NCBI GenBank assembly: GCA_018669975.1
Contig: JABHSK010000007.1
Span: 390-64,389 of the forward strand
Source: Candidatus Parcubacteria bacterium
GTDB taxonomy: Bacteria; Patescibacteriota; Patescibacteriia; UBA1558; GWA2-36-10
Length of the DNA stretch: 64,000 nt
Reading direction: 5' to 3'
Shown here: one piece after another, positions 11,381-59,340 of the stretch
Layout: each line of letters begins with the position of its first letter
How positions within the stretch are numbered: the first letter of the stretch is position 1
Position numbers and translations under genes: made by a program
Notes under the pieces: model-generated
Told to the model about the DNA's origin: nothing
Databases searched by the model: none
The model's input: the letters and a program-made list of their open reading frames with translations, nothing else

Positions 11381-11764
11381 TGGTGGAGATGAGGGGTATC
11401 ACACCCCTGTCTATCATAAGTCCTAATATACATCTACAAGCTTAGTTAATTTTGTATTTAAACTATTGGCTAAAAAATCAACAAAAAACCAATAATCGAT
11501 TCAGTTTGGGGGTTCGGAATATTCATACTGAAGCTAAATATGTCCTAGCCTGATGAAATGACGTCCCTAATTAACCTCAGGCAAATTAGTTTAGAGACGG
11601 TCGAAGCAAATTTATGCTAAGACTGGTGAAAGTTGTGGGACTTGAAACAAGTCTTTAACTTTCGCAAATGTATTTTTTACACTTATTTTAGTCGATTTTT
11701 AATGAGATCGGGAACTCAACATGCAGTATATTATTTCAAATGACATCGAATAAAAAACATCCCC
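11381..11764 (-). ncRNA. ssrA: tmRNA (ssrA)
   Basis: The 5' end GGGGAUG pairs with the 3' end CAUCUCC-A-CCA, including a G3:U70 wobble. The T-arm is aggggtgtgataccccT. A plausible tag frame GCGAAAGUUAAA...GUCUUAGCAUAA encodes ...PVLA*. It lies immediately downstream of smpB. Confidence 0.7.
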
Positions 11765-21441: not shown

Positions 21442-23466
21442 TTATTTGTTCAAAAATTGTTTTAGTAACTTGTTGGCCGTAGCTGGTCCTTTATTCCAAT
21501 GAATTTTGACCCCTTGTTTTTCCATGCGTCGGAACCAGGTTAGTTGCCGTTTAGCATAGTGCCTAGTATTTTGCTTGATTTTATCAATGGCTTTTTCTAG
21601 GTTTATTTTTTTATCTAAATACTCTATGATTTCCCGATAACCAATACCTGATAGGGCAGGTAGTTTTTTGTTGGGGTATTTTTTGTAGATTTTTTTAACT
21701 TCATCAATTGATCCGTCATCTACCATGCGTTCGACTCTGGTGTTTATTTTTTTGTATAATTTTTCTCGATTTGGATCAATGCCAAAGACGATAAAGTCGT
21801 ATGGACATTCTCTGAGCTGAGGATTCGTCGGGTGTAGGTCATAGTTTTGTATAATTGAACAAATATATAGACCAGTGCCACCAGCGATGATTGGTAGCTT
21901 GCCCTTTATTACAATTTTTTCAATAGTTTTAAAAGCGGTTTGTTGCCAGTTATAGAGATTAAATTCTTGATTAGGTCTAACGATATCAAGTAGATGATGG
22001 GGGATGCCCTGCATTTCTTGTTTAGTAATTTTGTTGCTGGCAATATCCATACCCTTATATATTTGGCGGGAGTCTGAAGAAAGTATTTCGCCGTTAAATT
22101 TTTTAGCTAACTCTACGGCTAAGTCAGACTTACCCGCTGCGGTTGGTCCTAGTACTACGGCTATCTTCGGTTTTTTGTACAATTCAGCTTTATATCCCCA
22201 GTGCATGGTTTTTATTAATTTTACTTTATAAAACTCACCAACTTTCAGAGGCTGTTTAGTTTTTGTATGAGCAGCTATATAATTTGATAGTTTGCCGATG
22301 TTGAGGTAACCGCCCTCTGTTTTTTTGACAACATCTATTAACACTTCTCTGGTTTGTCCTAATAATTTTTTATTGAAGGCTGCAGATTGTTTTGATAGCA
22401 ACGAATCTAGTTTTTGCCAGCGTAGTTTTTTTTCAGCTTTAGTGACGTCATCTTTATATAGTTTGGTTGCAGCTGTGCCAGTTCGAGCAGAGTATTGTGA
22501 AATATAAGCCATGTTATATTTTATGTCAGTAAATAATTTAGCCGTAGCTTGAAAGTCTTTTTTGGTTTCAGAACAGAAGCCAACTATAATATCAGTAGAT
22601 ATAGTAATATCTGGCATGGCTTGGCGTATTTTTTTTATTAGCTTTTTGTAATGAGCTACAGTATAATGGCGGTTCATTTTTTTAAGAATCTTGTTTGATC
22701 CAGCTTGAACAGGCAAGTGTAGATAATCATTTAGATTTTTACATTCGCTCATAACTTTTATTAGCTTGTCGGACATATCGTAGGGGTGGCTGGTTAAAAA
22801 TTTTAGCCAAAAGTTGTCACCTAAAGTATCAATTTTTTTTAATAGATCAGGAAAATTAATTTCACCTTTGATATCTCTTCCATAGCTATTTACATTTTGT
22901 CCCAACAAAACAATTTCTTTATAACCCTGTTGGAGTAAACCTTCTACTTCTTTGATTATATGTTTAGCAGGTCGTGAAGTTTCTCGTCCACGAGTATAAG
23001 GGACAACACAGTAGGAGCAAAATTTATTACAGCCAGTCATAATTGGTACATAGGCTCTATAGTTTGACTGGTAATCAGGTTGAATATCAAAAAAATCTGG
23101 TAGAGCTAGTTTTTGTTGCGGTTTTATGTTCTGTAGATCGTCTGCTAGATTGTGCAGTTGCTTGATGTCTATAAATAAATCAAATTTATCTTGCAATTTT
23201 TTCTTATCTCTATCTAAAACACAACCTGATAGCAAGGTTATTAGAGGTCGCTTTTCTTTGACTAGTTGCCAGTTGCGTAATTTGCCGTACATGCGGTCAG
23301 CAGCAGCTTGTCGCACAGAGCAGGCTATGACACCGATTAGGTCAGCTTGGGATTCGTCATCGGTTTCTTGGTAGCCGAGCTGTTTGAGAACAGCGGCTAG
23401 TCTTTCAGCATCAGAATAGTTCATCTGGCAGCCAAATATAATCAAATGGAATTTCTTGGTTTTCAT
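21442..23466 (-). CDS. Fused tRNA methylthiotransferase MiaB (N-terminal) and tRNA dimethylallyltransferase MiaA (C-terminal)
   Basis: The N-terminal MTTase domain is followed by the radical SAM motif CNKFCSYC and a TRAM domain. The sequence then continues in frame into KIAVVLGPTAAGKSDLAVELAKKFNGEILSSDSRQIYKGMDIASNK...RQLTWFRR, the MiaA signature. Confidence 0.75.
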   Translation of the reverse strand: MKTKKFHLIIFGCQMNYSDAERLAAVLKQLGYQETDDESQADLIGVIACSVRQAAADRMYGKLRNWQLVKEKRPLITLLSGCVLDRDKKKLQDKFDLFIDIKQLHNLADDLQNIKPQQKLALPDFFDIQPDYQSNYRAYVPIMTGCNKFCSYCVVPYTRGRETSRPAKHIIKEVEGLLQQGYKEIVLLGQNVNSYGRDIKGEINFPDLLKKIDTLGDNFWLKFLTSHPYDMSDKLIKVMSECKNLNDYLHLPVQAGSNKILKKMNRHYTVAHYKKLIKKIRQAMPDITISTDIIVGFCSETKKDFQATAKLFTDIKYNMAYISQYSARTGTAATKLYKDDVTKAEKKLRWQKLDSLLSKQSAAFNKKLLGQTREVLIDVVKKTEGGYLNIGKLSNYIAAHTKTKQPLKVGEFYKVKLIKTMHWGYKAELYKKPKIAVVLGPTAAGKSDLAVELAKKFNGEILSSDSRQIYKGMDIASNKITKQEMQGIPHHLLDIVRPNQEFNLYNWQQTAFKTIEKIVIKGKLPIIAGGTGLYICSIIQNYDLHPTNPQLRECPYDFIVFGIDPNREKLYKKINTRVERMVDDGSIDEVKKIYKKYPNKKLPALSGIGYREIIEYLDKKINLEKAIDKIKQNTRHYAKRQLTWFRRMEKQGVKIHWNKGPATANKLLKQFLNK

Positions 23467-47698: not shown

Positions 47699-47854
47699 AA
47701 TATAAATAAAAGGCTCGTCTAAAAGGCGAGTTTTTTAATATTGACGAATTTTTTGTTTCATTATAAGATAATTTTTGCGCATATGTTGTGCATTGTGGTT
47801 TATCCCACATAAGACAGGTAGAAAATAATTACCATCAAGCTTAAGGAGGAAATT

Positions 47855-48145
47855 ATGACTATCGGCAAGGTGACTCATGTTTTTACGAACAAGCGCTGCG
47901 TAGCTATTCGTATCAAAGAGGGTCAGCTAAATCAGGGCGATTTATTGAAGTTCACCAAAGGGGACGCAAGTACTGGTATGCCCGGTGTACACGACAGTCT
48001 GCATAAGGCTGGTTCGATTGAGATTGACAACGAGTCAGTTGTATCAGTTGAGGTCGGACAGGAGTGTGCGGTGCATATTGGCAGCGGTGAGTTGCCACCT
48101 AACAACTGTGACGTTATGGTGGTGATGATTCCGGAGCGCTGTTGA
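47855..48145 (+). CDS. Hypothetical small protein (GC-rich, beta-barrel-like)
   Basis: A strong RBS aaggagg and an upstream promoter. No motif recognised. Confidence 0.4.
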   Translation: MTIGKVTHVFTNKRCVAIRIKEGQLNQGDLLKFTKGDASTGMPGVHDSLHKAGSIEIDNESVVSVEVGQECAVHIGSGELPPNNCDVMVVMIPERC

Positions 48146-48192
48146 CAAGTTTTAATATCTGTCATAAGATGCTCTTTGTGTGAATTTTAAAT

Positions 48193-48293
48193 GGGCAGGT
48201 AGTTTAACTTATTCCCAGGGCCCGGGAAGACCAAGTTAAAGCACCGACTGACCAGGTCGGAGATTGGGAGTTCGAATCTCTCTCTGCCCACCA
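48193..48293 (+). tRNA. tRNA-like gene (101 nt) with a ~25-nt extension of the D region; identity unclear
   Basis: Acceptor gggcagg/tctgccc-a-CCA, T-arm gggag-ttcgaat-ctctc and anticodon-like arm ccgac-tgaccag-gtcgg (G at position 33). The D region is a 41-nt extended hairpin (tttaactt...aagttaaa). Confidence 0.4.
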
Positions 48294-48306
48294 TTTTTCC
48301 CAGGCA

Positions 48307-48381
48307 AGGGGTGTAGCTCAGCAGGATAGAGCGTCTCGTTTCGGCGAGAGGTCGAAGGTTCGATTCCTTCCACCCCTGCCA
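48307..48381 (+). tRNA. tRNA-Arg (anticodon most likely UCG)
   Basis: Acceptor aggggtg/cacccct-g-CCA, D-arm gctcagcaggatagagc and T-arm gaagg-ttcgatt-ccttc. As read, the anticodon stem tctcg/cgaga encloses a 6-nt loop tttcgg. Confidence 0.6.
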
Positions 48382-48412
48382 ATAGTTCTTTATTATATTC
48401 ATCTCAGATGGA

Positions 48413-48487
48413 GTCCACGTACCTCAGGGGTAGAGGGCTTGTGTGTTAAGCAAGTTGTCACTGGTTCAAATCCAGTCGTGGACTCCA
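48413..48487 (+). tRNA. tRNA-Asn (GTT)
   Basis: Acceptor gtccacg/cgtggac-t-CCA, anticodon stem cttgt/gcaag with loop gtGTTaa, and T-arm actgg-ttcaaat-ccagt. Confidence 0.8.
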
Positions 48488-48493
48488 TAAGGA

Positions 48494-48597
48494 GCGGGCA
48501 TAGCTCAGCTGGCAGAGCATCTTTGGGACTTGGTAGTACCGCAGGGTAACTACCACGAAAAAGACGGTCGGGAGTTCGAGTCTCTCTGCCCGCTCCA
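48494..48597 (+). tRNA. tRNA-like gene (104 nt) with a ~28-nt insertion in the anticodon loop; identity unclear
   Basis: Canonical acceptor gcgggca/tgcccgc-t-CCA, D-arm gctcagctggcagagc and T-arm gggag-ttcgagt-ctctc. The anticodon stem tcttt/aaaga encloses 35 nt, including the hairpin tggtagt..actacca. Confidence 0.4.
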
Positions 48598-48718
48598 CTT
48601 ATTACCCCGTCGACATTGTTCGGCGGGTCTTCTTTTTAGTAATATTGACATAAAAGATCTTTTGTATTATGGTATAGTATGTTTTATGGTAATGTAAATT
48701 ATTTTTTTAGATATTTAT

Positions 48719-49717
48719 ATGAAAAAACTAGATCAAGTATACGATCACGTAACATCTTTAGGCATAGGATTAACCTCATTATGTAACCTTAAGTGCTCCC
48801 ATTGCTACTCAAAAAATTTAAGTAAGAAGACCCTAACTCTAGCAGAAATGGAAGGGATTTTTGAGTATTTTCCTAATTTACAGAAAGTAAATTTTGGCAC
48901 TGGCGAGAGCATACTAAATCCTGATTTTTTAAAAATTGTTGATTTTTTTCATGCCAAAAAGATAAAAATTGCAGTTACATCAAATGGTACTACTATTGCT
49001 CAGATGTCTGATGAGCATCTAAAGAAACTGGATGAGGTAGATATTTCTCTAGATTTTGCCAACGCTAAAGAACATGATGAGTGGAGGGGTTATCCTGGTT
49101 TGTTTGATAGAGCCATTGAGTCTATAGAGAGGTGTAAAAAATTAGGCATTGAAATATCCATTGCTACAGTATTGATGAATTCTAACTATAAAGTTTTTGG
49201 AGAGTTTAAAAAGATATTAGATAAATATGATATTCATCTGAGAGTAAACTTATGTAAACCAGTAGATACTGATGAATTTCAGATGAGCTATGAAGAGTTT
49301 TGGGAATCAATGAAAATAATTGCTGATAATTTCACTTTAGTAGCTAGCTCAGAGCCTGTGTTAGCTATTGTTACTGATATTAATGATCATTTGTGTGGAT
49401 CTCCTTGCGGTGATTCAGTTAGGCTACATCCAGATTTTAGTGTTAGTCCTTGTGTTTATGTGGATGGTAATAAGATTTCAACAGAGAAGTTTATAGAAAT
49501 GAAAAAACAAATCCCGAAATTTTGTCAGGATTGTGATTTTGTTGATAAATGCCGAGGTGGCTGTATGAGTAGAAGAATTTTTAATGATAATGTTGATAAG
49601 CCAGATGAGTATTGTCCAATTTATCGTGGAGATAAAATTCCAGAGATAAATTTCAAAACATTAGTAGGAAAAGAGTTTATACATAGTAATTATTTGTGTA
49701 CATTTATTTTAAAATAA
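48719..49717 (+). CDS. Radical SAM / SPASM-domain protein
   Basis: N-terminal CNLKCSHC and a C-terminal cysteine-rich SPASM region (CGSPCGDS...CQDCDFVDKCRGGC...YCP). A promoter TTGACA-17-TATGGT lies upstream. Confidence 0.7.
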   Translation: MKKLDQVYDHVTSLGIGLTSLCNLKCSHCYSKNLSKKTLTLAEMEGIFEYFPNLQKVNFGTGESILNPDFLKIVDFFHAKKIKIAVTSNGTTIAQMSDEHLKKLDEVDISLDFANAKEHDEWRGYPGLFDRAIESIERCKKLGIEISIATVLMNSNYKVFGEFKKILDKYDIHLRVNLCKPVDTDEFQMSYEEFWESMKIIADNFTLVASSEPVLAIVTDINDHLCGSPCGDSVRLHPDFSVSPCVYVDGNKISTEKFIEMKKQIPKFCQDCDFVDKCRGGCMSRRIFNDNVDKPDEYCPIYRGDKIPEINFKTLVGKEFIHSNYLCTFILK

Positions 49718-49747
49718 TAGTGTAAGAAAAAACCACAAGACATGTAA

Positions 49748-50863
49748 ATGAAAGGGGTAGCGATGTTGCTGGATGTCAGTAAGTACGCTGACCAAATTGA
49801 GCGTCGGCGAGCAAGGCGAAGCCTAGCTGCCCAACTTAGCCCCAATGCAAATGTACCGATATGTTTTTATTTCAACGGTGCATTTTATTGTGAGCTACTG
49901 GGCGTTGATGTCGAGGAATATTATCGGGAACCAGAATTACAGGTTGAGGTTCAGCTTAAGGGCTGGCAGTGGCAAATGGAGCATTTGCGTGCAGATTCTT
50001 CCACCTGTGATTGGATTGGTTTTGAGACGGGCCCGATTGGCGAAGCGGTTGCCTTTGGTACACCAATATTCACCAGTCAAAATAGTCCGCCTGTCAGTCA
50101 GTCGATTGAAAATGATCTATCCGAGATTCTCAAATTGCAAGTTATTCCACCGGATAGAAATAGACTGTGGCAGAGCTTACAGGCTAAGGCAGAACGTTTT
50201 GCTGCTCGAGCCAGTAAGTTGGGAACCAACATTCCCGTTGCTAAGTTTAGGCCACCGGCCATTCATTTGCCTTTGACGGCAACATGTTTATTGGCTGATG
50301 CTACTCAAGTAATGCTAGCAGTGGGGGGTCGAACTCCTGAGTTAGATAAGGTACTGTGGCATATGTGTCATGCTTTAATTGAGTGGAATGCTTATTTTTA
50401 TGGCAATGGTGAAATGTGGTTGTGTGACGATTATATCTGTTTCATTTCCGAGGCAGATTTTCGGGCATGCTTAACTAAGCATTATCAGTTTTTAAACACT
50501 GTCTATTCTGATAGGCGCTTGTGTTTTCATGCTGATGGTCCTTTAGATCAGCACTTTGCTCATTTGCTGGATTTTGTATCAGCTAAAAAGGTAGATATCG
50601 GCGGCTTCAGCTCTTTAGTAGAAGAACGACGTCATCTACAGGGTAGAGTGTTGTTTTCCGGAGGCTTGAATAACAAGGATTTCGACAAACACGGTTTGCA
50701 TCAAACGACTATCAAGAAGGCTCTTCAAGCAATTGAAGATTCTAAAGCCGAAGGAGGCTTTGAACTTTCTATTGGTGGTCAGTGCTACGTGGGTGTTAAT
50801 CCTGACAGCCTTTGTCAGTTGGTAGAAATAGTCCGATCGGAGTATAATTACGCTATAGAGTGA
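49748..50863 (+). CDS. Hypothetical protein (~48% GC); possible URO-D/MtaA-like TIM-barrel. Alternative start at 49763.
   Basis: ORF with an internal RBS-like aaagggg before the second ATG. Weak pattern resemblance only. Confidence 0.35.
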   Translation: MKGVAMLLDVSKYADQIERRRARRSLAAQLSPNANVPICFYFNGAFYCELLGVDVEEYYREPELQVEVQLKGWQWQMEHLRADSSTCDWIGFETGPIGEAVAFGTPIFTSQNSPPVSQSIENDLSEILKLQVIPPDRNRLWQSLQAKAERFAARASKLGTNIPVAKFRPPAIHLPLTATCLLADATQVMLAVGGRTPELDKVLWHMCHALIEWNAYFYGNGEMWLCDDYICFISEADFRACLTKHYQFLNTVYSDRRLCFHADGPLDQHFAHLLDFVSAKKVDIGGFSSLVEERRHLQGRVLFSGGLNNKDFDKHGLHQTTIKKALQAIEDSKAEGGFELSIGGQCYVGVNPDSLCQLVEIVRSEYNYAIE

Positions 50864-50924
50864 CATTGAGCCGCAAAGCGGCTCAATGTCACGTATTTAT
50901 TCAGACTACTTTTAAAAAAAATAT

Positions 50925-51593
50925 ATGAATAAAAACAAAACAAACATTAATTGGGATAGTCTTTGGGAAAAAAGAAAAGATTTAGATTGGTGGCGTACAC
51001 CAGCTAAAGACTTTGTTAAAATTCTAGAGTCACTAGATTTTTCTGGTCAGGAAAAGTTTTATGATTTGGGAGCAGGCATCGGCAGGCACACTGTTTTGCT
51101 GGCTAAGGCTGGCTTTGATGTTTATGCTTCTGATGATTCACAAGCAGCCATTGATCAAATAGAGGAGTGGTTAGCCAAAGAAAAAGTATCAGCCAAGACT
51201 TATTTATGTGATATGGCTGAAGGGCCATTTGAAAAAGATTTTTTTGATTTTGTAGTATCTTATAACGTAATCTATCATGGGCAGCAGGAAAGAATGCAGC
51301 AGGCGATAGATCATGTCTATGATATTTTGAAGCCGAACGGATATTTTTATTTTACTTGTCCAAGTATTAAAGATGGACGTTGTGGTTCTGGCACTGAAGT
51401 TGGGTATCAGGCTTGGCGTTGTGAAAATGCTCTAGACAAAGGAGAAGTGCATTGTTTTACGACCAGGGAAGATTTAGATAAATATTTAGAAAAATTTGAA
51501 ATAGTATCTGTTAATTTGAATGAAGGTAGTTTTGTCCACGAAGGCAAGGATAGATTTTATTCAGACTGGCAGGGGTTAGTAAAGAAAAAATAA
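50925..51593 (+). CDS. Class I SAM-dependent methyltransferase
   Basis: Motif I YDLGAGIGRHTVLLAKAGFDVYASD. Confidence 0.65.
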   Translation: MNKNKTNINWDSLWEKRKDLDWWRTPAKDFVKILESLDFSGQEKFYDLGAGIGRHTVLLAKAGFDVYASDDSQAAIDQIEEWLAKEKVSAKTYLCDMAEGPFEKDFFDFVVSYNVIYHGQQERMQQAIDHVYDILKPNGYFYFTCPSIKDGRCGSGTEVGYQAWRCENALDKGEVHCFTTREDLDKYLEKFEIVSVNLNEGSFVHEGKDRFYSDWQGLVKKK

Positions 51594-52474
51594 AAGATTT
51601 AGACAAAAACATTTCCGTAGTTTTAAGACTAACCAAGTATTGCAACTTAAGTTGTGAGCATTGTTATTATGCTGCTTCACCAGACAATAAGCATAGTATG
51701 TCAGAGTATAAGGTAAAACAAGCTTTGGAAGATTTGGCATCTTTAGAAAAAGAAGGATTTAAAATAAACGAAATCAGGTTGACTGGCGGTGAAGTGACAG
51801 CCTTGCCGTATATAGCAGCTCTAACTAAAGATATTAAAACTAGGTGGCCAAAAGCTACTTTGCAGTTGGAGAGTAATGGTATTAAGTTGATGGCCAATGA
51901 AGAATCACGGCAGATGCTTGAGTGGATTGACAGGCTACACATTAGCATTGACACTTGGCATGACAATGTAGACATTGAGGGGAATTCAAAGATTTTAGAT
52001 TTTTTATTGAAGCGTAGAAAAAAATATAAATTTGGAGTATTGGTGCACTGGGCTACCAATCAAGACGATGAAGAATTAATGCAGAAGTTTTTAACTAAGT
52101 ATGAGCCGCAACAAATTGATTTTCATATCAGTGAGGTGTCACCAGCTGGGCGGGGAGGAAATTTAAATGAAAGGTTTTTAGCTAAACATCATTCACAACG
52201 TACAGTTTGTAGTTTTGCCAATTATATACTTCTAGATGTTGATGAACACTGGTATAGCTGCAGGGTAATGGCTGATTATAGTCGCATTGGTAAAATTGCT
52301 TGTAAAGATTTTGTAAATAAGATAAATAAAGCCAAAAAAATAAGGCAGGAGCTAGCTATTGACAAAATTGGCATTCCGTTATTTAATAGAGAACTTGATA
52401 AGGCTAAGGTTTGTAAGCAAATCAAGCAAAACAAAGGAATAATATGTGATCTTTGTAAAAAGGTCAATTTATAA
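51590..52474 (+). CDS. Radical SAM protein; 5' end uncertain because the CxxxCxxC motif lies upstream of the first ATG at 51698
   Basis: The open frame from 51554 encodes ...NISVVLRLTKYCNLSCEHCYY before the first ATG. Candidate starts are ATA at 51590 (overlapping the upstream TAA), ATT at 51611, or a -1 frameshift from the upstream methyltransferase gene. Confidence 0.5.
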   Translation: MKDLDKNISVVLRLTKYCNLSCEHCYYAASPDNKHSMSEYKVKQALEDLASLEKEGFKINEIRLTGGEVTALPYIAALTKDIKTRWPKATLQLESNGIKLMANEESRQMLEWIDRLHISIDTWHDNVDIEGNSKILDFLLKRRKKYKFGVLVHWATNQDDEELMQKFLTKYEPQQIDFHISEVSPAGRGGNLNERFLAKHHSQRTVCSFANYILLDVDEHWYSCRVMADYSRIGKIACKDFVNKINKAKKIRQELAIDKIGIPLFNRELDKAKVCKQIKQNKGIICDLCKKVNL

Positions 52475-52517
52475 TAGATAAAGCACCTTAAAATTCTAGC
52501 AGCGAGGGGAGTGTACC

Positions 52518-53117
52518 GTGAGTGGTAAATTTGTGGCTCTTGTTGGCCCTTCAGGGGTAGGCAAGACTACCATCATCACTGCTCTGATGAGCTCTTCAAC
52601 TGATTTTGTCAGGATGTTGCCGCATACAAGTCGGCCACCTCGACCCTATGAAGTTGAAGGAGAAGATTATTGGTTTGTGTCTCGCGATGAGATACAAGCG
52701 ATGTTGGCAGCCGATCCTAGGCTCAAAGAAACTTTGGTTGAGTTTGACGGACACCAGTTCGTTATTGACTACAATCGGATTGAGCAAATGTTGGCTGACG
52801 GTAAAGTAATATTGATGGACCTCTATATTAACTGGGTTCAGCAGTTTAAAGAAAGGTATGACCAGCAGATGGCTGCCGTACTTTTGCTGCCGGATGACCT
52901 GGATGTATTGGTCGATCAGCTAAGTCGCTCGAGGAAACATGATCCCGAATTTGTGGATAAACGCATGGCCCAGACTGCTCGGGAGATGAACATCTTCCAA
53001 AACAAGATGAAGCCTTATTTTAATAAGGTAATTGTCTTGCCGCGGTCTTTGGATATGGCAGTGGCCCAGGTTCGGAGAACTATTACCCTATTAACAGATG
53101 GGGTTGGGGGGCGCTAG
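52518..53117 (+). CDS. gmk: Guanylate kinase (GTG start)
   Basis: ALVGPSGVGKTT P-loop and HTSRPPRPYEVEGEDYWFVSRDE. About 50% GC. Confidence 0.7.
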   Translation: MSGKFVALVGPSGVGKTTIITALMSSSTDFVRMLPHTSRPPRPYEVEGEDYWFVSRDEIQAMLAADPRLKETLVEFDGHQFVIDYNRIEQMLADGKVILMDLYINWVQQFKERYDQQMAAVLLLPDDLDVLVDQLSRSRKHDPEFVDKRMAQTAREMNIFQNKMKPYFNKVIVLPRSLDMAVAQVRRTITLLTDGVGGR

Positions 53118-53150
53118 CTACGGCTTCGGCCTCCCCCCTTTTTATTTTTT
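53105..53150 (+). terminator. Rho-independent terminator (G/C-run stem plus T-run)
   Basis: ggggttggggggcg...ggcctcccccc followed by tttttatttttttt. Confidence 0.5.
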
Positions 53151-53157
53151 TAAAATT

Positions 53158-54672
53158 ATGAATATAAATAACAAAAAATTAAAAAATTCAGATTACTGTT
53201 CTATTTTTAGTAATAAAGATGGTCAGTATGCTGTTTATCATTCACTGACTTGTGATATTGTATATGGTGGCGAACTATTGAATAAATTGTTTGCACATTT
53301 TTCAGACTATAATACTTATCAAGAGCTTGATAAGGAGGATGAAAAAACCAAACAGTTATTAACTACCTTGTACCAAGGTGGTTTTTTAGTTGCTAATGAT
53401 AAGCAAGATCAGAAATTATTGGATAGCATGCAGAAACAAGTTAAAGCCAAACAATTTATCAAGACATTGTATTTGAGTATTACCTATAAATGTAATTTAC
53501 GTTGTAAATATTGTATCAGTAATAATGACGTTGCTTTAGATGGAGACAAAAAACTTTCTTTTATGGACATGGATAAAGATACTGCTAAACAGGTAGTTGA
53601 TTATTATTTGCAGCATGTGGTAGATGAGGGTGATAAGGAGGTTGTTCTCTATGGCGGTGAACCATTAGTTAATTATGAAGTTTTGAAATTCATGGTTGAA
53701 TATATAGAGGAAAAAGAATCAGCTAAAATAAAAAAGAATAAAGATTATAAGAGGAGTCGTTTTATTTTGTGTACCAACGGCACTTTAATTAATAAGGAAA
53801 AAGCAGCCTATCTAAAAGAGCACAGGATTTATCCAGCAGTTACTTTTGATGGAGATCAACTGGCTCATGATAATGTTCGGGTTTATGCCAACGGGCAAGG
53901 AACATTTGAGGATGTAGTCAAAGCTTATAGAAATTTACAGGAGCTAGATTTTCCAATTGGTGTGACATTGACTTTAGGTAGTCACAATGTAGACAAGGTG
54001 GCAGATTTTGTAGAGTTGTTTGCTAAAAAGCTACAACCTCATACTATGGCTACTAATATTATGATTGATTACGATGATGGTGGTAATCCCTATGTCTGTG
54101 AAGGTAATACTCTAGCAGATAATTTAATTAAAGCTTTTGAAGTTGCTAGAAAACATGGCATGTATTTGGTTAAGTATGTTATGGATAATCGTATTAAACC
54201 TTTTGTAGAAAAACAGCCAAGACTTAAAGGATGCACGGGCACTGGATCAAGGATTATGGTTTTGCCGGATGGTTCTCTGTCAGCTTGTATGGCTTATGCT
54301 AATAATTCATCAGTCAAAGTAAAAGATAATCCAAAGGTAGAGGAATTTTTGCCAACGGGTATAAAAACCTATTCACCATTTCTCAAACAACAATGTCGCT
54401 ATTGTCCAGCTATTTCTTGCTGCGGTGGCGGTTGCCCTAAGAGCGCGGAGGTTAAACATGGTACCTTATTCTCATTGGACGACGATTACTGTATTCAGAG
54501 TAAGAGATTTTTAGAATGGTTAATTTGGGATTTATACAATTTTATTGATCAGAAGCAACTGGTCAAAGATGGTTTTGTAATTCCCAGCGATGAAGAACGC
54601 CATAAGATATATGGAAAAATAGAAGTGCGTCGCAGTCCATTAGATTTTCAATATACACCTAACGCTAATTAA
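53158..54672 (+). CDS. Radical SAM / SPASM-domain protein with a ~115-aa N-terminal extension (possible peptide-recognition domain)
   Basis: ITYKCNLRCKYC and the SPASM region CTGTGSRIM...SAC...CRYCPAISCCGGGCP. The start is placed after the terminator, at MNINNKK. Confidence 0.7.
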   Translation: MNINNKKLKNSDYCSIFSNKDGQYAVYHSLTCDIVYGGELLNKLFAHFSDYNTYQELDKEDEKTKQLLTTLYQGGFLVANDKQDQKLLDSMQKQVKAKQFIKTLYLSITYKCNLRCKYCISNNDVALDGDKKLSFMDMDKDTAKQVVDYYLQHVVDEGDKEVVLYGGEPLVNYEVLKFMVEYIEEKESAKIKKNKDYKRSRFILCTNGTLINKEKAAYLKEHRIYPAVTFDGDQLAHDNVRVYANGQGTFEDVVKAYRNLQELDFPIGVTLTLGSHNVDKVADFVELFAKKLQPHTMATNIMIDYDDGGNPYVCEGNTLADNLIKAFEVARKHGMYLVKYVMDNRIKPFVEKQPRLKGCTGTGSRIMVLPDGSLSACMAYANNSSVKVKDNPKVEEFLPTGIKTYSPFLKQQCRYCPAISCCGGGCPKSAEVKHGTLFSLDDDYCIQSKRFLEWLIWDLYNFIDQKQLVKDGFVIPSDEERHKIYGKIEVRRSPLDFQYTPNAN

Positions 54673-54673
54673 T

Positions 54674-56089
54674 ATGGGAGAATTGAATCCACAAATTAAA
54701 GATCAATTATCAAAGTATGTACGAGTATTTGATTTTGGTGAACATCTATGTTTACTGAATGGCTTGTCTTTAGATAAAGTTTTCATTAAAGCGGATGCAG
54801 ATAATCAGGAGACCAAAGATGTTTTGCAAAAGTATAATTTGCTTAAAGATTTTGATGTAAAGGCTGAGAAATTTGTGAGTGGTTGTCAGAGTAAGTTTGA
54901 TCCTAGTTTTAGGCAATTGTATCTGGTGGTGACGGAAGCTTGTAATTTTGATTGTAAATATTGTCGGCAAGTAACACACGACGTCAAGGGTAATCGTAGT
55001 ATGACTCGAGACGAGGCTAGATTGATTGTTGATAATTTTTTTAATTTGGCGGAGGACAAACCACGTGGCGTAGTTTTTTATGGTGGTGAGCCATTGGTGA
55101 ATAAAGAGGTTATGTTGGATGCAGTTAAATATATTCGGCAGAAAGAAAGTAAATTAAAATTGGATAGGCCGATTGATATGACTATCATTACCAATGGTAC
55201 TTTAGTAGATCATGATAGCGCACAGGTACTCAAGGATAATGATGTTTATATTATTATGTCTATTGATGGTCGCGCTCAAGAGCATGACAAGTTTAGAGTT
55301 TATGCAAATGGTAAAGGAACCTTTGACGATGTTATCAAGGGTTATAAAATATACCAGCAAGCTGGTTGTAGAGTAGGTATATCTTGTACAATTGGTTCAC
55401 ATAATTACGACAATCTAGAGGACATTTTTGATTATTTTGCTAATGATTTGCAACCAATTAATGTTGGTATCAACCTACCACATGACGATCACGACAATCC
55501 ATTAAATGATGATTTAGATTTTGGAAAATTCTGTCAACGTATGTTCAAAATTTTTGAACAGTCAACAGATAACAATTTATATATAGAGCATATTATCAGA
55601 AAGTTGAAACTTTTATTTAGACACGAGATTAAAATTAATGACTGTGCAGCCTGTGGTGGTAGATTGGTTGCTTTACCTGGGCAAAGATATGGAGTTTGTG
55701 AAGGAGCGATTGGTATGGATGAGTTTTTCTTTACAGACATAAAGAGGGTTGCTGAGATGTCCGCAGAATGGTATGGAACTTCTCCGCTTTTTGATGACCA
55801 TTGTAGTAATTGTGCTGCTGTCGGAGTCTGTGGTGGTGGTTGTCCTTTTGATGGATATTTAGAAGCCAAGCAGGTTGGACACCGTGATAGTCGTCGTTGT
55901 CTATTTATGAATAAGATTGTCGAGTGGGGATTAGAAAATTTTTATAAAATACACAAAAATAAATTGCAAGGCAAGAAATACTATATTCCGAATTTGAGTG
56001 ATCAACATGATTTTTTGAAAGAGATTAAAGCTATTAATGATAGTTTACCCTTGCGTAGTTCTGCTAGTTTTAGTAATACCAAATTATGA
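54674..56089 (+). CDS. Radical SAM / SPASM-domain protein, paralog of 53158..54672
   Basis: VTEACNFDCKYC and the SPASM region CAACGGRLVALPGQRYGVC...CSNCAAVGVCGGGCP. The two genes share VYANG(K/Q)GTF(D/E)DV. Confidence 0.7.
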   Translation: MGELNPQIKDQLSKYVRVFDFGEHLCLLNGLSLDKVFIKADADNQETKDVLQKYNLLKDFDVKAEKFVSGCQSKFDPSFRQLYLVVTEACNFDCKYCRQVTHDVKGNRSMTRDEARLIVDNFFNLAEDKPRGVVFYGGEPLVNKEVMLDAVKYIRQKESKLKLDRPIDMTIITNGTLVDHDSAQVLKDNDVYIIMSIDGRAQEHDKFRVYANGKGTFDDVIKGYKIYQQAGCRVGISCTIGSHNYDNLEDIFDYFANDLQPINVGINLPHDDHDNPLNDDLDFGKFCQRMFKIFEQSTDNNLYIEHIIRKLKLLFRHEIKINDCAACGGRLVALPGQRYGVCEGAIGMDEFFFTDIKRVAEMSAEWYGTSPLFDDHCSNCAAVGVCGGGCPFDGYLEAKQVGHRDSRRCLFMNKIVEWGLENFYKIHKNKLQGKKYYIPNLSDQHDFLKEIKAINDSLPLRSSASFSNTKL

Positions 56090-57558
56090 AAGTCGTAATA
56101 CTAGATATTCCAACTACAGAGATTTTTTCTACACCTGAATTTAACAGGTTGTCTTCAGAGGTCAAAAAATATCGTCTACATGATCAAAAAGTTAAATTGG
56201 AAGATAAATACAATATTCGTTTTTCACCACCGCATACTTACAACCGTGGACTTTTATTCGTGGCAGCGGTACTAGAAGAAAAGGGTGTTGAGGTTGATTA
56301 TTTTAATGGAGACTATGACAAAGATTTTTGGCAGAAATGTCAGGATAAAATAAAGGAAGCAGATGTATTGATGGCTTCAGTAAAAACCAATAATTATCCA
56401 GTTATTTTAGAGTATTTTGTTCAAGCCAGAGAAATAAAACCAGGGATTACAACTATGATTGGTGGTTCACATGCTACGGCTATGCCTGAACAATGTTTAG
56501 AAAACGATTTGATAGATTTTGTAGTGATAGGTGAAGGTGAGATTACTTTGGCAGAATGGCTAGATGTTTATCAATCTACTGGTGATGATTATAGTCAGAT
56601 TTTAGGCTTGGGTTACAAACAAGGCAAAGAAGTTAAAGTGAACTCTTTACGTCCTTTGATAGAGGCTCTAGATGCTTTGCCGATGCCTGCTTATCATTTG
56701 TTGCCAGGTGGCCTTAAAGAATATCATCCTTATATTGATACTTCCCGTGGTTGTATGTATCAATGTGGTTTTTGTAGCGGGCCAAACTTTTGGCGCCGTA
56801 AAATGCGCACCAGATCATTTGCTAATTTTTATAAAGAATTAGAATTGATTAAATCATTGATGGGGGATTATAACTTTATTCATATTTCAGATCCAATGCT
56901 GGGAGTGACTCCACAGCAGTTGGAAATATTGAACCAGTTAAAAGAAAAAGAAATTGATTTATATTTTTCTTGTGATGTTAAAGCTAATTATATTCGTCCA
57001 GATTTAATTCAATTGATGAAAGACAGCGGAATTATTATTTTTTCCATTGGCATTGAAACCCTAAATGATAAAGCGCTGACTTTACTAAAAAAGAATTGTA
57101 CAGCTGAACTAGAAATTGAAGCTTGTCGAGCCATTAAAAAGTTTGATGGTATTTATGTAAAATCATATTGGATTGTTGGTTTGCCAGGCGAGGATAAGGA
57201 ATCACTGCAATATAACAACGAGCAAATTTATAATTTATTGAAGACAGAAGCAGTTGATCAAGTTTGTAATCATATTTTAGTTCCATATCCAGGTACAGAG
57301 TTTTTTCATGATCCAAAACAGTTTGGTATCAATATTATGCATGATGATTGGATACACTATGAGGGCAGATCATATCCTTTAATTTATAAACTAGACAATC
57401 TGTCTGGTGATGAAATATACAAATATTTTTTAGAAGCTCACGAATATGAGCTCAAATATTATAAGGAAGCATATCCAAGTATAGCTTTTACTGATGAACC
57501 TGGTAAGCAAGATCAAGATAACATGAGTTTTGGTAAGTACAAAGGAAGGCTACTTTAA
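56086..57558 (+). CDS. B12-binding domain radical SAM protein (class B-like)
   Basis: N-terminal cobalamin-binding-like domain followed by TSRGCMYQCGFCSGP (C-x3-C-x2-C). Confidence 0.7.
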   Translation: MKVVILDIPTTEIFSTPEFNRLSSEVKKYRLHDQKVKLEDKYNIRFSPPHTYNRGLLFVAAVLEEKGVEVDYFNGDYDKDFWQKCQDKIKEADVLMASVKTNNYPVILEYFVQAREIKPGITTMIGGSHATAMPEQCLENDLIDFVVIGEGEITLAEWLDVYQSTGDDYSQILGLGYKQGKEVKVNSLRPLIEALDALPMPAYHLLPGGLKEYHPYIDTSRGCMYQCGFCSGPNFWRRKMRTRSFANFYKELELIKSLMGDYNFIHISDPMLGVTPQQLEILNQLKEKEIDLYFSCDVKANYIRPDLIQLMKDSGIIIFSIGIETLNDKALTLLKKNCTAELEIEACRAIKKFDGIYVKSYWIVGLPGEDKESLQYNNEQIYNLLKTEAVDQVCNHILVPYPGTEFFHDPKQFGINIMHDDWIHYEGRSYPLIYKLDNLSGDEIYKYFLEAHEYELKYYKEAYPSIAFTDEPGKQDQDNMSFGKYKGRLL

Positions 57559-57664
57559 AAGCTTGTTTATTGACAAAATTATATAAATATATAAGATTGG
57601 AGTATGAATGCAGAATTTTACTACTGCCAATAAATGAACCTTGTTAATAGAATAGGAGAACACA

Positions 57665-58927
57665 ATGAAACCGTTCTACGGTCTTGATTTTGGAACTAGC
57701 AATCTGTCGATTGCTATCCAGAATGGGGAAGGCACACAAGTCTTGCCTATTGATGGTCAAAATAAAACGATGCCGACGGTATTATATTTTGGACCAAGTG
57801 GAGGGGAACCAATTGTTGGTCAGAGTGCTATGTTGCGCTATGTTGCCGATGGGATGAGTGGACGCTTTATGCAGTCACTCAAGTCAGTTTTACCTAATTC
57901 CGGGTTTACTGGCACCTATCTAGATAGGCTTGGCTTTGCCGATATTGAAGACTTGATTGCTTATATCCTTAGGGATGTTAGGCAGCGAGCCAACGAACAA
58001 GTCGGCATGGACATTGATCGGGCTGTTTTTGGGCGGCCAGCAGAATTTTCCAAGGATCCGGAAGAAGAAACTATGGCCATCGAGCGCCTGATGAAGGCTG
58101 CCAAGCTGGCAGGTTTTAATGAAGTTGAACTTCAGTTGGAGCCAATTGCGGCCGCTTTTCACTACGAAATGTCTTTAGATAGAGAAGAGGTTGTATTGGT
58201 TGCAGACCTGGGTGGAGGTACCACTGACTTTACGGTCACCAGGTTGTCTCCAAAAAGAAGGAGAAAACGAGATCGCTCCAAGGACATCTTGTCTACTGGT
58301 GGTGTCTACATCGGTGGCGATAAGTTTGACTCAGCTGTAATGGAGATGAAATTGCTTAAGTACTTTGGTCAAGATGCCGAGTACAACAGTTGGGAAAAAT
58401 GGATGCGTTTTCCATCGTACCTTGTTCGTGGCATTATGCAATGGCAAGAAATTGCCTTCCTCAAAGATACTCGCACTATGCGTGTGCTCAATGATCTAGT
58501 ACGTTATGCTAGGACAAAAGAAGACAAAGAGTGTGCTATACGCTTACTTACTCTAATAGATGAGAACCTGGGCTTTTCCTTGTTTCAAACTATTGAGACC
58601 GCTAAGCGTGGTTTGTCTACTTATGATAGTGACTGTATTTACTTTAATCAGTCAGCTATTAAGATTGTCGAGCCAATCTTTCGAAATGAGTTTGATGAAA
58701 TCATTGCCTTTGCACTAGAGGAGTACGAACAATGCGTAGATCAGGTTTTGGCTGATGCCGGAGTTTCTAATGGTAGAATTGACTCGGTCTTTCTAACAGG
58801 AGGATCTTCACTGGTGCCTTGCGTCCAATCGGCTTTTGCCAATCGTTTTGGTGAAGACAAATTGAGACGTGGCGACACCTTCATTAGTGTTGCTTCAGGA
58901 CTGGCTTCTAGCCAGTTGCTTTCCTAA
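57665..58927 (+). CDS. Hsp70-family ATPase, nucleotide-binding domain only (YegD-like)
   Basis: Phosphate-1 GLDFGTSN, phosphate-2 ADLGGGTTDFTV and a C-terminal ...FLTGGSS.VP. About 52% GC. Confidence 0.65.
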   Translation: MKPFYGLDFGTSNLSIAIQNGEGTQVLPIDGQNKTMPTVLYFGPSGGEPIVGQSAMLRYVADGMSGRFMQSLKSVLPNSGFTGTYLDRLGFADIEDLIAYILRDVRQRANEQVGMDIDRAVFGRPAEFSKDPEEETMAIERLMKAAKLAGFNEVELQLEPIAAAFHYEMSLDREEVVLVADLGGGTTDFTVTRLSPKRRRKRDRSKDILSTGGVYIGGDKFDSAVMEMKLLKYFGQDAEYNSWEKWMRFPSYLVRGIMQWQEIAFLKDTRTMRVLNDLVRYARTKEDKECAIRLLTLIDENLGFSLFQTIETAKRGLSTYDSDCIYFNQSAIKIVEPIFRNEFDEIIAFALEEYEQCVDQVLADAGVSNGRIDSVFLTGGSSLVPCVQSAFANRFGEDKLRRGDTFISVASGLASSQLLS

Positions 58928-59016: not shown

Positions 59017-59340
59017 ATGCAAGAATTTAAATTTAATAAAAAAAGTGACGATTTATTTAAGATTATTCTAAAGCTTAAAAACATTAAAGAAGCTGAGGCT
59101 TTTTTTCGTGATTTGTGTACTATTTCTGAATTGCAGGAAATGGTTGATCGCTGGAGAATAGTTAGATTATTGTCAGAAAATAAATCATATCGTGATATTG
59201 CCAAAGAACTTAAAACTAGTACTACCACAGTATCTAGGGTAGCTTCTTGGTTAAAAAATGGAAAAGGTGGTTATTCATTAGCACTCAAGCGCTCAGGTAG
59301 TCATCATAGTAACTCTTCCTCTGGGAAAGGGTTGCGTTGA
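59017..59340 (+). CDS. TrpR-like YerC/YecD family protein
   Basis: ...DRWRIVRLLSENKSYRDIAKELKTSTTTVSRVASWLKNG is the YerC/TrpR-related HTH signature. Confidence 0.65.
   Translation: MQEFKFNKKSDDLFKIILKLKNIKEAEAFFRDLCTISELQEMVDRWRIVRLLSENKSYRDIAKELKTSTTTVSRVASWLKNGKGGYSLALKRSGSHHSNSSSGKGLR

Follow-up and report, generated by a model that had tools for sequence, protein, structure and literature searches.

Here, we describe four tRNA-like genes (t1 to t4) that lie together at 48193-48597 on the forward strand of a 64-kb window, the whole stretch of DNA that was analyzed from Candidatus Parcubacteria bacterium, a small uncultured member of the candidate phyla radiation, and that we read, with slightly better than even confidence, as a cluster of selected, non-decoding tRNA-like RNAs. 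Each RNA keeps its acceptor end (7-bp stem, discriminator, encoded CCA and T arm), which is the half seen by the processing and charging machinery, and the anticodon end is disabled differently in t2 (6-nt loop), t4 (35-nt helical extension) and t1 (G33 plus a D-loop hairpin). Because these RNAs are tRNA-like except in the codon-reading part, which is shortened, mutated or exchanged for a conserved hairpin, they probably have the shape of tRNAs and a role other than normal decoding, rather than being tRNAs with a new kind of intron.

Locus and relatives

The features of the locus, all on the forward strand, are as follows:

47855-48145, forward strand: open reading frame for a stand-alone beta-barrel protein of 96 aa, with a predicted EF-Tu domain II / IF2-like fold
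48142-48170, forward strand: promoter-like site, TTGACA-17-TAAGAT, 10 of 12 consensus matches, 22 nt 5' of t1
48193-48293, forward strand: t1, tRNA-like gene, 101 nt with CCA, Rfam tRNA score 37.9 bits
48307-48381, forward strand: t2, tRNA-Arg-derived tRNA-like gene with A20, G73 and CCA, Rfam score 57.8 bits
48413-48487, forward strand: t3, tRNA-Asn(GTT) by ARAGORN, Rfam score 61.3 bits
48494-48597, forward strand: t4, tRNA-Gly-like gene, 104 nt, Rfam score 46.1 bits (E=1e-6)
48606-48637, forward strand: intrinsic-terminator-like hairpin and T run at the 3' end of the operon

By its sequence signals, 48142-48637 is one promoter-to-terminator transcription unit holding t1 to t4. The 573-nt intergenic region is identical across 10 contigs from differing samples and assemblers, and the exact agreement of these 10 independent assemblies rules out an assembly artifact. 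The window also carries tmRNA, EF-Ts and rpsB, so the host is a bacterium; a 3' fragment of tRNA-Gly(UCC) is present elsewhere in the window. With the Rfam tRNA model aligned end to end, each of the four genes scores above its gathering threshold of 29, and all form a cloverleaf with a 7-bp acceptor stem, a 5-bp T stem, a T loop fitting TTCRANY and a 3' CCA. Only t3 combines an anticodon loop of 7 nt with U33 and a purine at 37.

Informative relatives were found through protein look-ups. Orthologous operons are present in two related species, L269 (CysRS 86% identical to that of the window) and L274, and a variant operon is present in the more distant L002. In the alignment, the promoter block TTGAYA...TGTCATAAGATG...TTTGTGTGAA is kept in L269 and L274, both have a matching hairpin and T run downstream of t4, and CCA is kept along with promoter and terminator in all three species (window included). 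In a CysRS synteny search of GTDB, the nearest genomes (at most 73% identity) were without the operon, apart from the L002 variant. The region downstream of cysS varies between relatives and contains an AbiEii toxin gene in one of them.

Neither the t1 nor the t4 insert recurs in the window with up to 3 mismatches allowed, and a repeated or mobile palindromic element in tRNA genes was rejected for the window on this ground. A blastn-short search of the inserts against all collected loci matched the t4 orthologues alone. The inserts of t1 (ACCAAGT) and t4 (ACTTGGT) share a 7-nt complementarity, for which a rough estimate of chance occurrence is about 5%, and t1 is missing from the relatives.

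Structures of the RNAs and the adjacent protein

A preliminary description of t1 and t4, made from the sequence alone, gave positions and structures that agree with the Rfam scores, the perfect acceptor and T arms and the encoded CCA found here. In t1, the Rfam tRNA match (E=2e-4 over the 64-kb window) leaves 31 nt unaligned, all in the D loop, where about 25 extra nt form a hairpin at about 48203-48241 (TTTAACTT-A-TTCCC-AGGGCCC-GGGAA-GACC-AAGTTAAA in the MFE fold). The acceptor stem is GGGCAGG/TCTGCCC, the T arm is GGGAG-TTCGAAT-CTCTC, and A73 precedes CCA. The anticodon stem CCGAC/GTCGG closes the loop TGACCAG and thus puts G at position 33, as first reported. GG runs occur only within the inserted hairpin, and the positions of the D loop that are single-stranded in the MFE fold have no G18G19; an alternative fold proposed by ARAGORN has a mismatched acceptor stem. 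In L269 and L274, t1 is missing from the operon and the promoter leads directly into t2. This distribution suggests that t1 is a recent addition specific to the species of the window, and its function is the least certain of the four; that it is a pseudogene is plausible, though we hold it to be the less likely case.

The t2 gene had been taken for a canonical tRNA-Arg flanked by the two unusual genes, which is incorrect because its anticodon loop (TTTCGG, 48339-48344) has only 6 nt. The covariance model requires a deletion there, and ARAGORN types the gene as 'tRNA-???'. The loop equals the Arg UCG loop minus nt 38; it also fits a UUCG tetraloop with U.G closure. No canonical anticodon loop is found in any of the three species (UUUCGG in the window, UUCCGG in L269, and ACUUUUU in L274, where the anticodon stem has 6 bp), and since none of these loops contains an insert, the theme shared by the cluster is a decoding loop that has been lost, not interrupted. 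The rest of t2 is tRNA-like, with a normal D arm that has GG (G18G19) in an 8-9-nt D loop. Alignment of the three species gives 5 compensatory pairs with 98% of cells paired, which 2 of 500 shuffles equal. A20 is kept, and C35-G36 is kept in two of the three species (absent in L274); together these are tRNA-Arg identity elements. Among other relatives, L002 has two genes with 6-nt anticodon loops, one of which (gene B) lacks CCA, is mismatched in the acceptor stem and is mutated in the T loop; in the more distant L271, UUCG caps the anticodon stem of a Glu-like gene; and L283 has an ordinary tRNA-Arg(CCG) with the loop TTCCGGA, located elsewhere than in the operon.

The assignment of t3 as a canonical tRNA-Asn holds. 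Its loop, GTGTTAA, is the sole canonical anticodon loop of the cluster, and it has U73 and G1-C72 as first pair. The t3 orthologue of L269 has the loop AGGTTAA (G33), and t3 is missing in L274.

The t4 gene has a textbook body, with acceptor stem GCGGGCA/TGCCCGC, D arm GCTC-AGCTGGCA-GAGC (G18G19 in an 8-9-nt loop), T arm GGGAG-TTCGAGT-CTCTC, U73 and CCA. G1-C72, C2-G71, G3-C70 and U73 make up the full bacterial tRNA-Gly acceptor-stem identity set. Its anticodon stem, TCTTT/AAAGA, encloses 35 nt (48525-48559) in place of the usual 7-nt loop, and both the sequence and the folds confirm the 7-bp hairpin described there earlier. The module begins with GGGACT, continues with the hairpin TGGTAGT/ACTACCA around a loop of 11 nt and ends with CGAA; an ACC triplet sits solely inside or beside this helix. 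The insert is identical to that of the window at 31 of 35 nt in L269 and 30 of 35 nt in L274, a conservation at least as high as that of the T arm and D loop, and its hairpin varies across orthologues by one G-C to G.U change. The proteins have diverged over the same distance, with 86% identity for CysRS of L269 and 60-68% for the 96-aa protein. The T stem has 2 compensatory double changes and the alignment is 100% paired (3 sequences). With three orthologous sequences per gene the covariation statistics are weak for t2 and t4 alike, and most of all for t4, where 101 of 500 shuffles reach the observed value. RNAalifold recovered the extended-arm cloverleaf again from the orthologues. Judged from these comparisons among species, purifying selection acts on the folded RNAs of t2 and t4. 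A kink-turn in the internal loop of t4 was rejected on inspection by hand, as the GA/GA geometry is unfit in both orientations and the relatives do not keep the 5'-side GA. When the window was searched for targets with the reverse complement of the t4 hairpin loop, no convincing match came up.

The stop codon of the 96-aa protein gene overlaps the -35 box of the promoter-like site. Pfam GTP_EFTU_D2 matches the protein weakly (E=0.11; 0.016 for the best family member). AF2 gave an unusable single-sequence model (pLDDT 40), and a model from a 4-sequence alignment reached pLDDT 83.8, for which Foldseek against PDB returned the U32 peptidase C-terminal domain, EF-Tu domain II and IF2 (E 3e-4 to 1e-3, TMq 0.63-0.72). 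It belongs to a rare family, with 39 clusters in a set of 1.84 billion representatives, and is 60-68% identical between the window and relatives. Family members adjoin tRNA-like genes in four species, that of the window and those of L269/L270, L274-L279 and L002/L280. On the basis of this adjacency and the predicted fold, the protein may be linked to the tRNA-like RNAs.

Proposed non-decoding role and alternative explanations

The cluster combines a tRNA fold, an intact acceptor end, conservation across species and an anticodon end unsuited to decoding. A tRNA-derived regulatory RNA, one of the options first put forward for these genes, is the one closest to the comparison with relatives. RNase P and 3' processing would cut the transcript into CCA-ended, L-shaped RNAs that could not offer a normal anticodon to the ribosome and that proteins reading the acceptor and T arms could still bind. 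Given that t4 retains the Gly set and t2 retains Arg elements, we prefer that t4 (with glycine) and t2 (with arginine) would be charged or, failing that, bound as mimics of tRNA, and would act off the ribosome as aminoacyl donors or as decoys or regulators. The EF-Tu-domain-II-like neighbor would be the partner that grips the 3' end, and the t4 extension would serve as a specific binding module. Bacterial GlyRS normally also reads C35 and C36, and ArgRS reads C35; the position of the t4 ACC in or next to a helix and the loss of C35-G36 from t2 in L274 would thus speak against charging.

A more specific form of the non-decoding reading, unlikely as it stands, is that the clade runs an off-ribosome aminoacyl-carrier system, in which charged t2- and t4-type RNAs with a UNCG-type or extended arm are delivered by the neighboring protein. 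The barrel protein would hold these RNAs by the aminoacyl-CCA end and deliver them to an acceptor other than the ribosome, for example a lipid, a peptide natural product or the cell wall; charging would persist since the acceptor identity sets are intact, and the phage tRNA-Gly-like genes with hairpin inserts (below) would be a parallel invention. A search of the annotated window genes for an aminoacyl-transferase of the Fem, MprF, L/F-transferase, cyclodipeptide synthase or LanB type gave none, with about 20 ORFs in 1-17.9 kb outside the scanned set; this result tells against the preferred reading.

Against the non-decoding reading stands the proposal that t1 and t4 are pre-tRNAs with a new short bacterial intron, a type of insert also named as an option in the preliminary description. 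In this proposal, an unknown endonuclease and RtcB-type ligation would produce tRNA-Gly(ACC)-type decoders. We judge this very improbable. The intron mode of ARAGORN, which had been suggested as a check, can force Gly(ACC) models, and in L269 and L274 these have a 25-nt intron at 31/32 and the loop CTACCAC or TTACCAC, with Y32-U33-ACC-A37-C38; the C-to-T change of L274 at this 'position 32' still leaves a pyrimidine, the putative anticodon pairs with insert nt (TGGTAGT/ACTACCA) much as in anticodon-intron pairing, and short anticodon-loop inserts also occur in many phage tRNA-like genes. The models differ between orthologues, however, and their stems are mismatched: the spliced stem UCUUU/GAAAA has one C.A mismatch and one U.G pair, compared with the perfect, invariant UCUUU/AAAGA, and the spliced model demands an 8-nt variable region. 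With the real stem kept, no contiguous excision gives U33. All contiguous 28-29-nt deletions in t4 that keep TCTTT/AAAGA, enumerated by hand, leave G or C at position 33 and never U, in line with the original remark that excision restores no canonical U33-NNN-R37 loop. A34 in a Gly anticodon is, to our knowledge, essentially unused in bacteria. A bulge-helix-bulge (BHB) intron (two 3-nt bulges and a 4-bp helix) was rejected by a scripted scan of t1, t4 and two t4 orthologues in both orientations, in which no candidate yielded a tRNA or was common to the three orthologues, and no EndA-like gene was found among the scanned genes of the window. The t4 insert, moreover, is no less conserved than the T arm and D loop; in t1 the insert occupies the D loop, and the anticodon loop of that gene has G33 regardless; and t2, the G33 variants and the UUCG-capped gene of L271 are left unexplained, as nothing there can be spliced. 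Group I introns were likewise rejected, since Rfam scans matched no intron family and the inserts (about 25 and 28 nt, compared with >200 nt) are, as had been pointed out, too short. Permuted tRNAs are not supported, as the 5' and 3' halves are in the usual order with paired ends. The covariance model also gives no support to a class II, Sec or allo-tRNA fold, the first of which had been named as a refuting outcome: variable regions are 5 nt, and the extra nt are in the D loop of t1 and the anticodon stem of t4. Literature searches on tRNA introns in CPR bacteria and phages and on inserted tRNA-like genes found nothing directly relevant.

Two further explanations were weighed. That the cluster consists of decaying duplicated tRNA genes, with inserts and loop deletions as unpurged disabling mutations, is quite unlikely. 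All members but t3 do carry a lesion at the anticodon end, t1 occurs in one species only, t3 is lost in L274, gene B of L002 is defective in acceptor stem, T loop and CCA, and the region downstream of cysS is variable, with the tRNA-Gly(UCC) 3' fragment elsewhere in the window. Compensatory double changes nevertheless keep the acceptor, anticodon and T stems of t2 and t4 paired, the promoter, terminator and CCA are common to three species, the 35-nt insert is nearly invariant, and the longest contig with these genes has 844,504 bp; because these genomes are streamlined, dead genes are not expected to last across species at 86% CysRS identity. The pseudogene option is thus not supported for t2 and t4, and t1, which has no orthologue, stays a candidate. 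The related expectation that homologs might be free of the inserts fails for t4, whose orthologues keep it, and t1 is absent from both relatives. Somewhat less improbable, yet still unlikely, is that the RNAs, without being aminoacylated, act as decoys or sponges for factors that target tRNA (anticodon nucleases, acceptor-end toxins or RNases) or are the remnant of a phage or mobile tRNA array in which changed anticodon loops avoid cleavage. Phage contigs hold many tRNA-like genes whose anticodon arms are altered or carry inserts, including a Gly-like family within head-gene modules, the locus 3' of cysS is a variable hotspot with an AbiEii toxin gene in one relative, and published work shows that mutated loops let phage tRNAs escape the anticodon nucleases of the host (PMC10264068). 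Besides evading a nuclease, loops of 4-6 nt or 35 nt abolish decoding, and therefore this is not that escape strategy as published. The operon, besides, has no phage, integrase or toxin gene beside it in its three species and its position is stable across them, and no t1 or t4 homologue was found in a viral collection scanned for the shared T arm. BLAST against phages likewise gave generic tRNA matches only and no t1 or t4 homologue. A metagenome pattern scan gave no t4 homologue; its pattern was stricter than the D loops of the true orthologues allow, and its collection does not include the species of the window.

Significance and comparison with known systems

Annotation pipelines would label such genes 'undetermined', 'intron-containing' or pseudogenes, which skews tRNA inventories and the inference of genetic codes in candidate-phyla-radiation genomes. 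If the non-decoding reading is true, the operon would be a compact natural use of tRNA bodies beyond translation, beside a protein with the fold by which EF-Tu grips the aminoacyl end, in hosts whose reduced genomes seldom keep unused genes. The sequences from three species form a test set for what RNase P, the CCA-adding enzyme, aminoacyl-tRNA synthetases and EF-Tu need of a tRNA, and the phage contigs with inserted-arm tRNA-like genes point to a wider class.

In Staphylococcus, non-proteinogenic tRNA-Gly isoacceptors are used by FemXAB for peptidoglycan bridges; these paralogues, held off the ribosome as aminoacyl donors, have a normal anticodon loop and avoid translation through weak EF-Tu binding. 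The t4 gene keeps the Gly acceptor-stem identity set, but it has no usable anticodon loop and no Fem-type transferase is found in the scanned part of the window. Archaeal BHB introns resemble the inserts in their length of tens of nt, their location in the anticodon or D loop and their partial pairing with exon nt, whereas here there is no BHB or relaxed BHB, excision restores no tRNA and the host is bacterial. Group I introns, the sole established type of bacterial tRNA intron, also interrupt the anticodon loop, as does the t4 insert, but they are longer than 200 nt and contain a catalytic core, compared with about 25 and 28 nt here.

The phage Gly-like family (L128, L211, L213 and L217-L220) resembles t4 in its Gly-type acceptor, U73-CCA, normal D and T arms and about 30 nt in the anticodon stem. 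Its insert hairpin covaries (GCAGG/CCTGC versus GTCGTA/TACGGC), and an ACC triplet is found toward the 3' side of this insert, as in t4. The family differs in its insert sequence and internal-loop layout (AAACG-hairpin-TACCTAA) and its place in phage head-gene modules, and no sequence homology with the t4 insert was found. Our literature searches found no account of such inserted-arm genes in phages.

Engineered tRNA scaffolds and aptamer-tagged tRNAs (for example PMC7590224) carry artificial hairpin grafts, and t4 looks like a natural hairpin graft on a tRNA body. In the engineered case, the tRNA fold provides processing and stability and the graft provides binding; those constructs are artificial, while t4 is natural and its ligand putative. 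The tRNA-Other of Bacillus cereus is reported to be a chromosomal tRNA-shaped RNA, a pseudo-tRNA, that has no role in translation and affects cell physiology (PMC3399842). Like it, the RNAs described here would be tRNA-derived RNAs kept for a non-decoding role, in this case deduced from the genes. The tRNA-Other is a single gene that flanks a genomic island and forms a cloverleaf of ordinary size, whereas the Parcubacteria locus is a multi-RNA operon with specific lesions (a 6-nt or UNCG-type loop, a 35-nt extension and a D-loop hairpin) and a conserved barrel gene.

Layout and setting of the four genes

Positions 47800-49000 of the window hold four tRNA-like genes on the + strand (t1 to t4), with the ORF of a 96-aa protein (47855-48145, +) on one side and a radical-SAM gene (48719-49717) on the other. 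All four genes exceed the gathering score of the Rfam tRNA model (29 bits) and encode CCA, and an Rfam scan matched them to no family other than tRNA.

Features of the tRNA-like operon
22 nt 5' of t1, + strand: promoter-like sequence (TTGACA-17-TAAGAT) overlapping the stop codon of the 96-aa ORF
48193-48290, + strand: t1, Rfam tRNA score 37.9 bits
48307-48378, + strand: t2, Rfam tRNA score 57.8 bits
48413-48484, + strand: t3, Rfam tRNA score 61.3 bits
48494-48594, + strand: t4, Rfam tRNA score 46.1 bits
3' of t4: terminator-like hairpin and T run

ARAGORN with default parameters reports t2 and t3 only, t3 as Asn (GTT) and t2 as 'tRNA-???' with a 2-base anticodon in a 6-nt loop; the latter, called a canonical tRNA-Arg in the preliminary description, is thus not canonical. 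Covariance-model alignment leaves 31 nt of the t1 D loop unaligned and assigns 37 nt to the anticodon-loop region of t4, versus 9 expected by the model. In minimum-free-energy (MFE) folds, the t1 D region is a hairpin (8 bp, 1x4 internal loop, 5 bp) and the TCTTT/AAAGA stem of t4 leads through an internal loop (GGGACT/CGAA) to a 7-bp helix (TGGTAGT/ACTACCA), so that Rfam alignments and folds agree with the structures originally described for t1 and t4.

The operon sequence is real and bacterial. The 573-nt intergenic region with t1-t4 is identical in 10 of 10 contigs read, from several samples and assemblers, and 14 contigs encode the 96-aa protein. Genes 5' of the operon are rpsB, tsf, pyrH, a PSP1-domain gene, gap and cysS, other genes of the window include tmRNA, gatB, thrS, dnaE, prfA, rpmE and tyrS, and the nearest CysRS sequences among reference genomes belong to Parcubacteria/Patescibacteria MAGs.

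The tmRNA (11381-11764, - strand; Rfam, 93 bits) is of the standard one-piece type and is unreported by default ARAGORN. A 3' fragment of tRNA-Gly(UCC) at 2295-2363 (+; Rfam, 31.4 bits, model positions 7-64) comprises the anticodon arm TCAGG-TTTCCAA-CCTGA, a T arm and TACCCGC-T-CCA, followed by a terminator-like hairpin; the matching 5' acceptor strand GCGGGTA was not found upstream, and the fragment may have been left behind as an att site by an integrated element, or may belong to a split or disrupted gene. In one 674-aa ORF (21442-23466, -), two enzymes with consecutive roles in tRNA A37 modification are fused: a MiaB-type radical-SAM methylthiotransferase (UPF0004 and Radical_SAM) and the MiaA isopentenyl-tRNA transferase (IPPT).

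Operons in related genomes

Searching protein sequences with CysRS led to a relative with 86% CysRS identity (P0004; loci L269 and L270). After cysS it has a small-protein homologue of 110 aa, the promoter block known from the window, orthologues of t2, t3 and t4, and a terminator. A third species (P0124; loci L274-L279), recovered by profile search with the small protein, has the order promoter, t2 orthologue, t4 orthologue, terminator, TrpR-like gene. These operons can be aligned with that of the window along their whole length, with three orthologues per gene at most. The conserved leader runs directly into t2 in both relatives, from which t1 is missing, so t1 and its spacer (~113 nt) are an insertion peculiar to the window's species; t1 is a young member of the operon, of uncertain function. 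Its insert contains ACCAAGT (48229-48236), 7 nt with perfect intermolecular complementarity to ACTTGGT of the t4 insert (48528-48534), a match with a roughly estimated chance probability of ~5% and one that the relatives, having no t1, do not share. Canonical in the window only, t3 is missing in L274, and its tRNA-Asn(GTT) orthologue in L269 (2462-2537) has the loop AGGTTAA, with G33 replacing the near-universal U33 in the independent assemblies L269 and L270 alike.

The t4 insert, GGGACTTGGTAGTACCGCAGGGTAACTACCACGAA in the window versus GGGCTTTGGTAGTACCGCACGGGAACTACCACGAA and GGGCTTTGGTAGTACCGCATGGGAATTACCACGAA in the relatives, differs at 2 positions in the 5' internal-loop strand, 2 in the hairpin loop and 1 C-to-T change that turns a hairpin G-C pair into G.U. 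Outside the insert, the D loop, variable region and T arm vary across orthologues, the T stem has two double compensatory substitutions, and RNAalifold independently predicts the cloverleaf with its extended arm. Across three species t2 retains A20, G73 and CCA, and five pairs in its acceptor, anticodon and T stems are changed on both sides, a score reached by 2 of 500 shuffles. The t2 loop sequences are TTTCGG (window) and TTCCGG (L269), and L274 has a 6-bp stem with the loop ACTTTTT. Because a more distant relative (L283) has a normal tRNA-Arg(CCG) with the loop TTCCGGA, the 6-nt loops are Arg loops without nt 38; their sequence also permits a reading as UUCG/UCCG tetraloops closed by U.G, with the variable base as the free N of UNCG.

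Further away, a genome with 73% CysRS identity (L271) has a Glu-like gene directly 3' of cysS, with anticodon stem GCTGA/TCAGC and a UUCG cap. Past this gene lies a GC-rich region of ~170 nt with long-range pairing GTGGTCGGACAC...GTGTCCGACTGC (MFE z = -2.0) and no Rfam family match; gene and region both fall in L271 6501-6745. At 66% CysRS identity (L002/L280), two tRNA-like genes with the 6-nt loops CTTGTT and TACGAA (L002 5718-5900 = L280 3468-3650) immediately precede a small-protein homologue. The second of them lacks CCA, carries T54C and has mismatches in its acceptor stem. Relatives with 67-69% CysRS identity have no tRNA-like genes of this kind 3' of cysS.

Between t4 and the TrpR-like gene (59017-59340), the window has a radical-SAM-rich block of ~10 kb (48719-58927) encoding five radical-SAM proteins (one B12-binding), a methyltransferase, a guanylate-kinase-like protein and an Hsp70/MreB-like protein. 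Neither relative has this block: in L274/L275 the TrpR-like gene comes immediately after t4, and in L269 t4 precedes an AstE_AspA gene, with tyrS next. The block therefore does not belong to the tRNA-like system; it looks like an island inserted beside the operon and is possibly a peptide-maturation cluster.

Readings of the locus

The preliminary description had offered a novel small tRNA intron as one option, and it is quite unlikely that the t1 and t4 inserts are a new kind of intron. At about 25 and 28 nt they are, as already noted there, too short for group I introns. A script scan for bulge-helix-bulge introns in both orientations of t1, t4 and the t4 orthologues found no motif that leaves a tRNA upon excision and none common to the orthologues. 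The earlier remark that excision does not restore a canonical loop holds, since any 28-29-nt deletion from t4 that keeps the true anticodon stem puts G or C at position 33. Intron models from ARAGORN are inconsistent between orthologues, swap a perfect invariant stem for mismatched UCUUU/GAAAA and require an 8-nt variable region. The extra nucleotides of t1 and t4 lie outside the variable region, which argues against class II tRNAs, and neither insert has a further copy elsewhere within the window, as a mobile repeat should. That t2 and t4 are pseudogenes is contradicted by their compensatory changes and by conservation of promoter, terminator, CCA and insert; t1 is possibly a pseudogene.

In all five species the locus combines an acceptor/T-arm half that is intact with an anticodon end unable to work as usual, which has a 4- or 6-nt loop, a loop without U33, or a conserved extension by roughly one helical turn. 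This combination fits selection for tRNA-like non-decoders, and we lean toward reading the locus as a conserved operon of non-decoding tRNA-like RNAs, which would be selected to resemble tRNA to processing enzymes and acceptor-end binders and be kept from decoding. The bacterial tRNA-Gly acceptor identity set (G1-C72, C2-G71, G3-C70 and U73) is complete in t4 and invariant in three species; of the tRNA-Arg identity elements A20 and C35-G36, t2 has A20, and C35-G36 in two species. Because these elements are kept, we favour a reading in which t4 and t2 would be charged, or would at the very least be bound as mimics of tRNA, and would be used off the ribosome. No aminoacyl-transferase gene was seen among the scanned genes of the window.

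The small protein has a confident all-beta model (AlphaFold, 4-sequence alignment; pLDDT 83.8), with the U32-peptidase C-terminal domain, EF-Tu domain II and IF2 as top PDB matches and a weak Pfam match to GTP_EFTU_D2; its family is rare (39 clusters among 1.84 billion representatives). EF-Tu domain II touches the aminoacyl-CCA end, and the small protein, encoded next to the tRNA-like genes, is the obvious candidate partner of their RNAs. To a specialist, both the conserved, apparently selected anticodon-loop loss and the nearby gene of this candidate partner would come as a surprise.

Phage counterparts and known systems

A pattern scan of phage contigs for tRNA bodies with encoded CCA and 9-39 additional nt from D stem to T loop found at least 120 such genes, with L091-L210 as the matches listed. 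Among the matches listed are several recurrent families, of which one has a conserved start YTGTAGT (Tyr GTA-like loop) and then 12-41 nt that vary, and another, of 107 nt, is abundant in sample 3300045988. Two viral contigs (L235 and L250) carry a 98-nt tRNA-like gene whose 3' region almost exactly matches that of t1 (GGGAGTTCGAGTCTCTCTGTGCCCACCA). The loop of this gene is Tyr-like (CTGTAAA), and its anticodon arm is enclosed by an unusual long-range pairing, ACAGC/GCTGT. In the literature on CPR or phage tRNA introns, we found neither genes of the t1-t4 type nor the phage insert-bearing set described.

A phage Gly-like family (L128, L211, L213, L217-L220) shares the architecture of t4, with an unrelated insert and a covarying hairpin (GCAGG/CCTGC versus GTCGTA/TACGGC); its anticodon stem also covaries (TTGGA/TCCAA, TCAGA/TCTGA, GCGGA/TCCGC) and encloses AAACG-hairpin-TACCTAA. 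The family is located amid phage head genes, in L219 (7610-7709) between portal, Mu-F-like and prohead-protease genes. Structurally, t4 also resembles engineered tRNA scaffolds. Of known systems, the B. cereus pseudo-tRNA tRNA-Other (PMC3399842) and the staphylococcal cell-wall tRNA-Gly species come closest in function; neither is known to have a remodelled anticodon arm.
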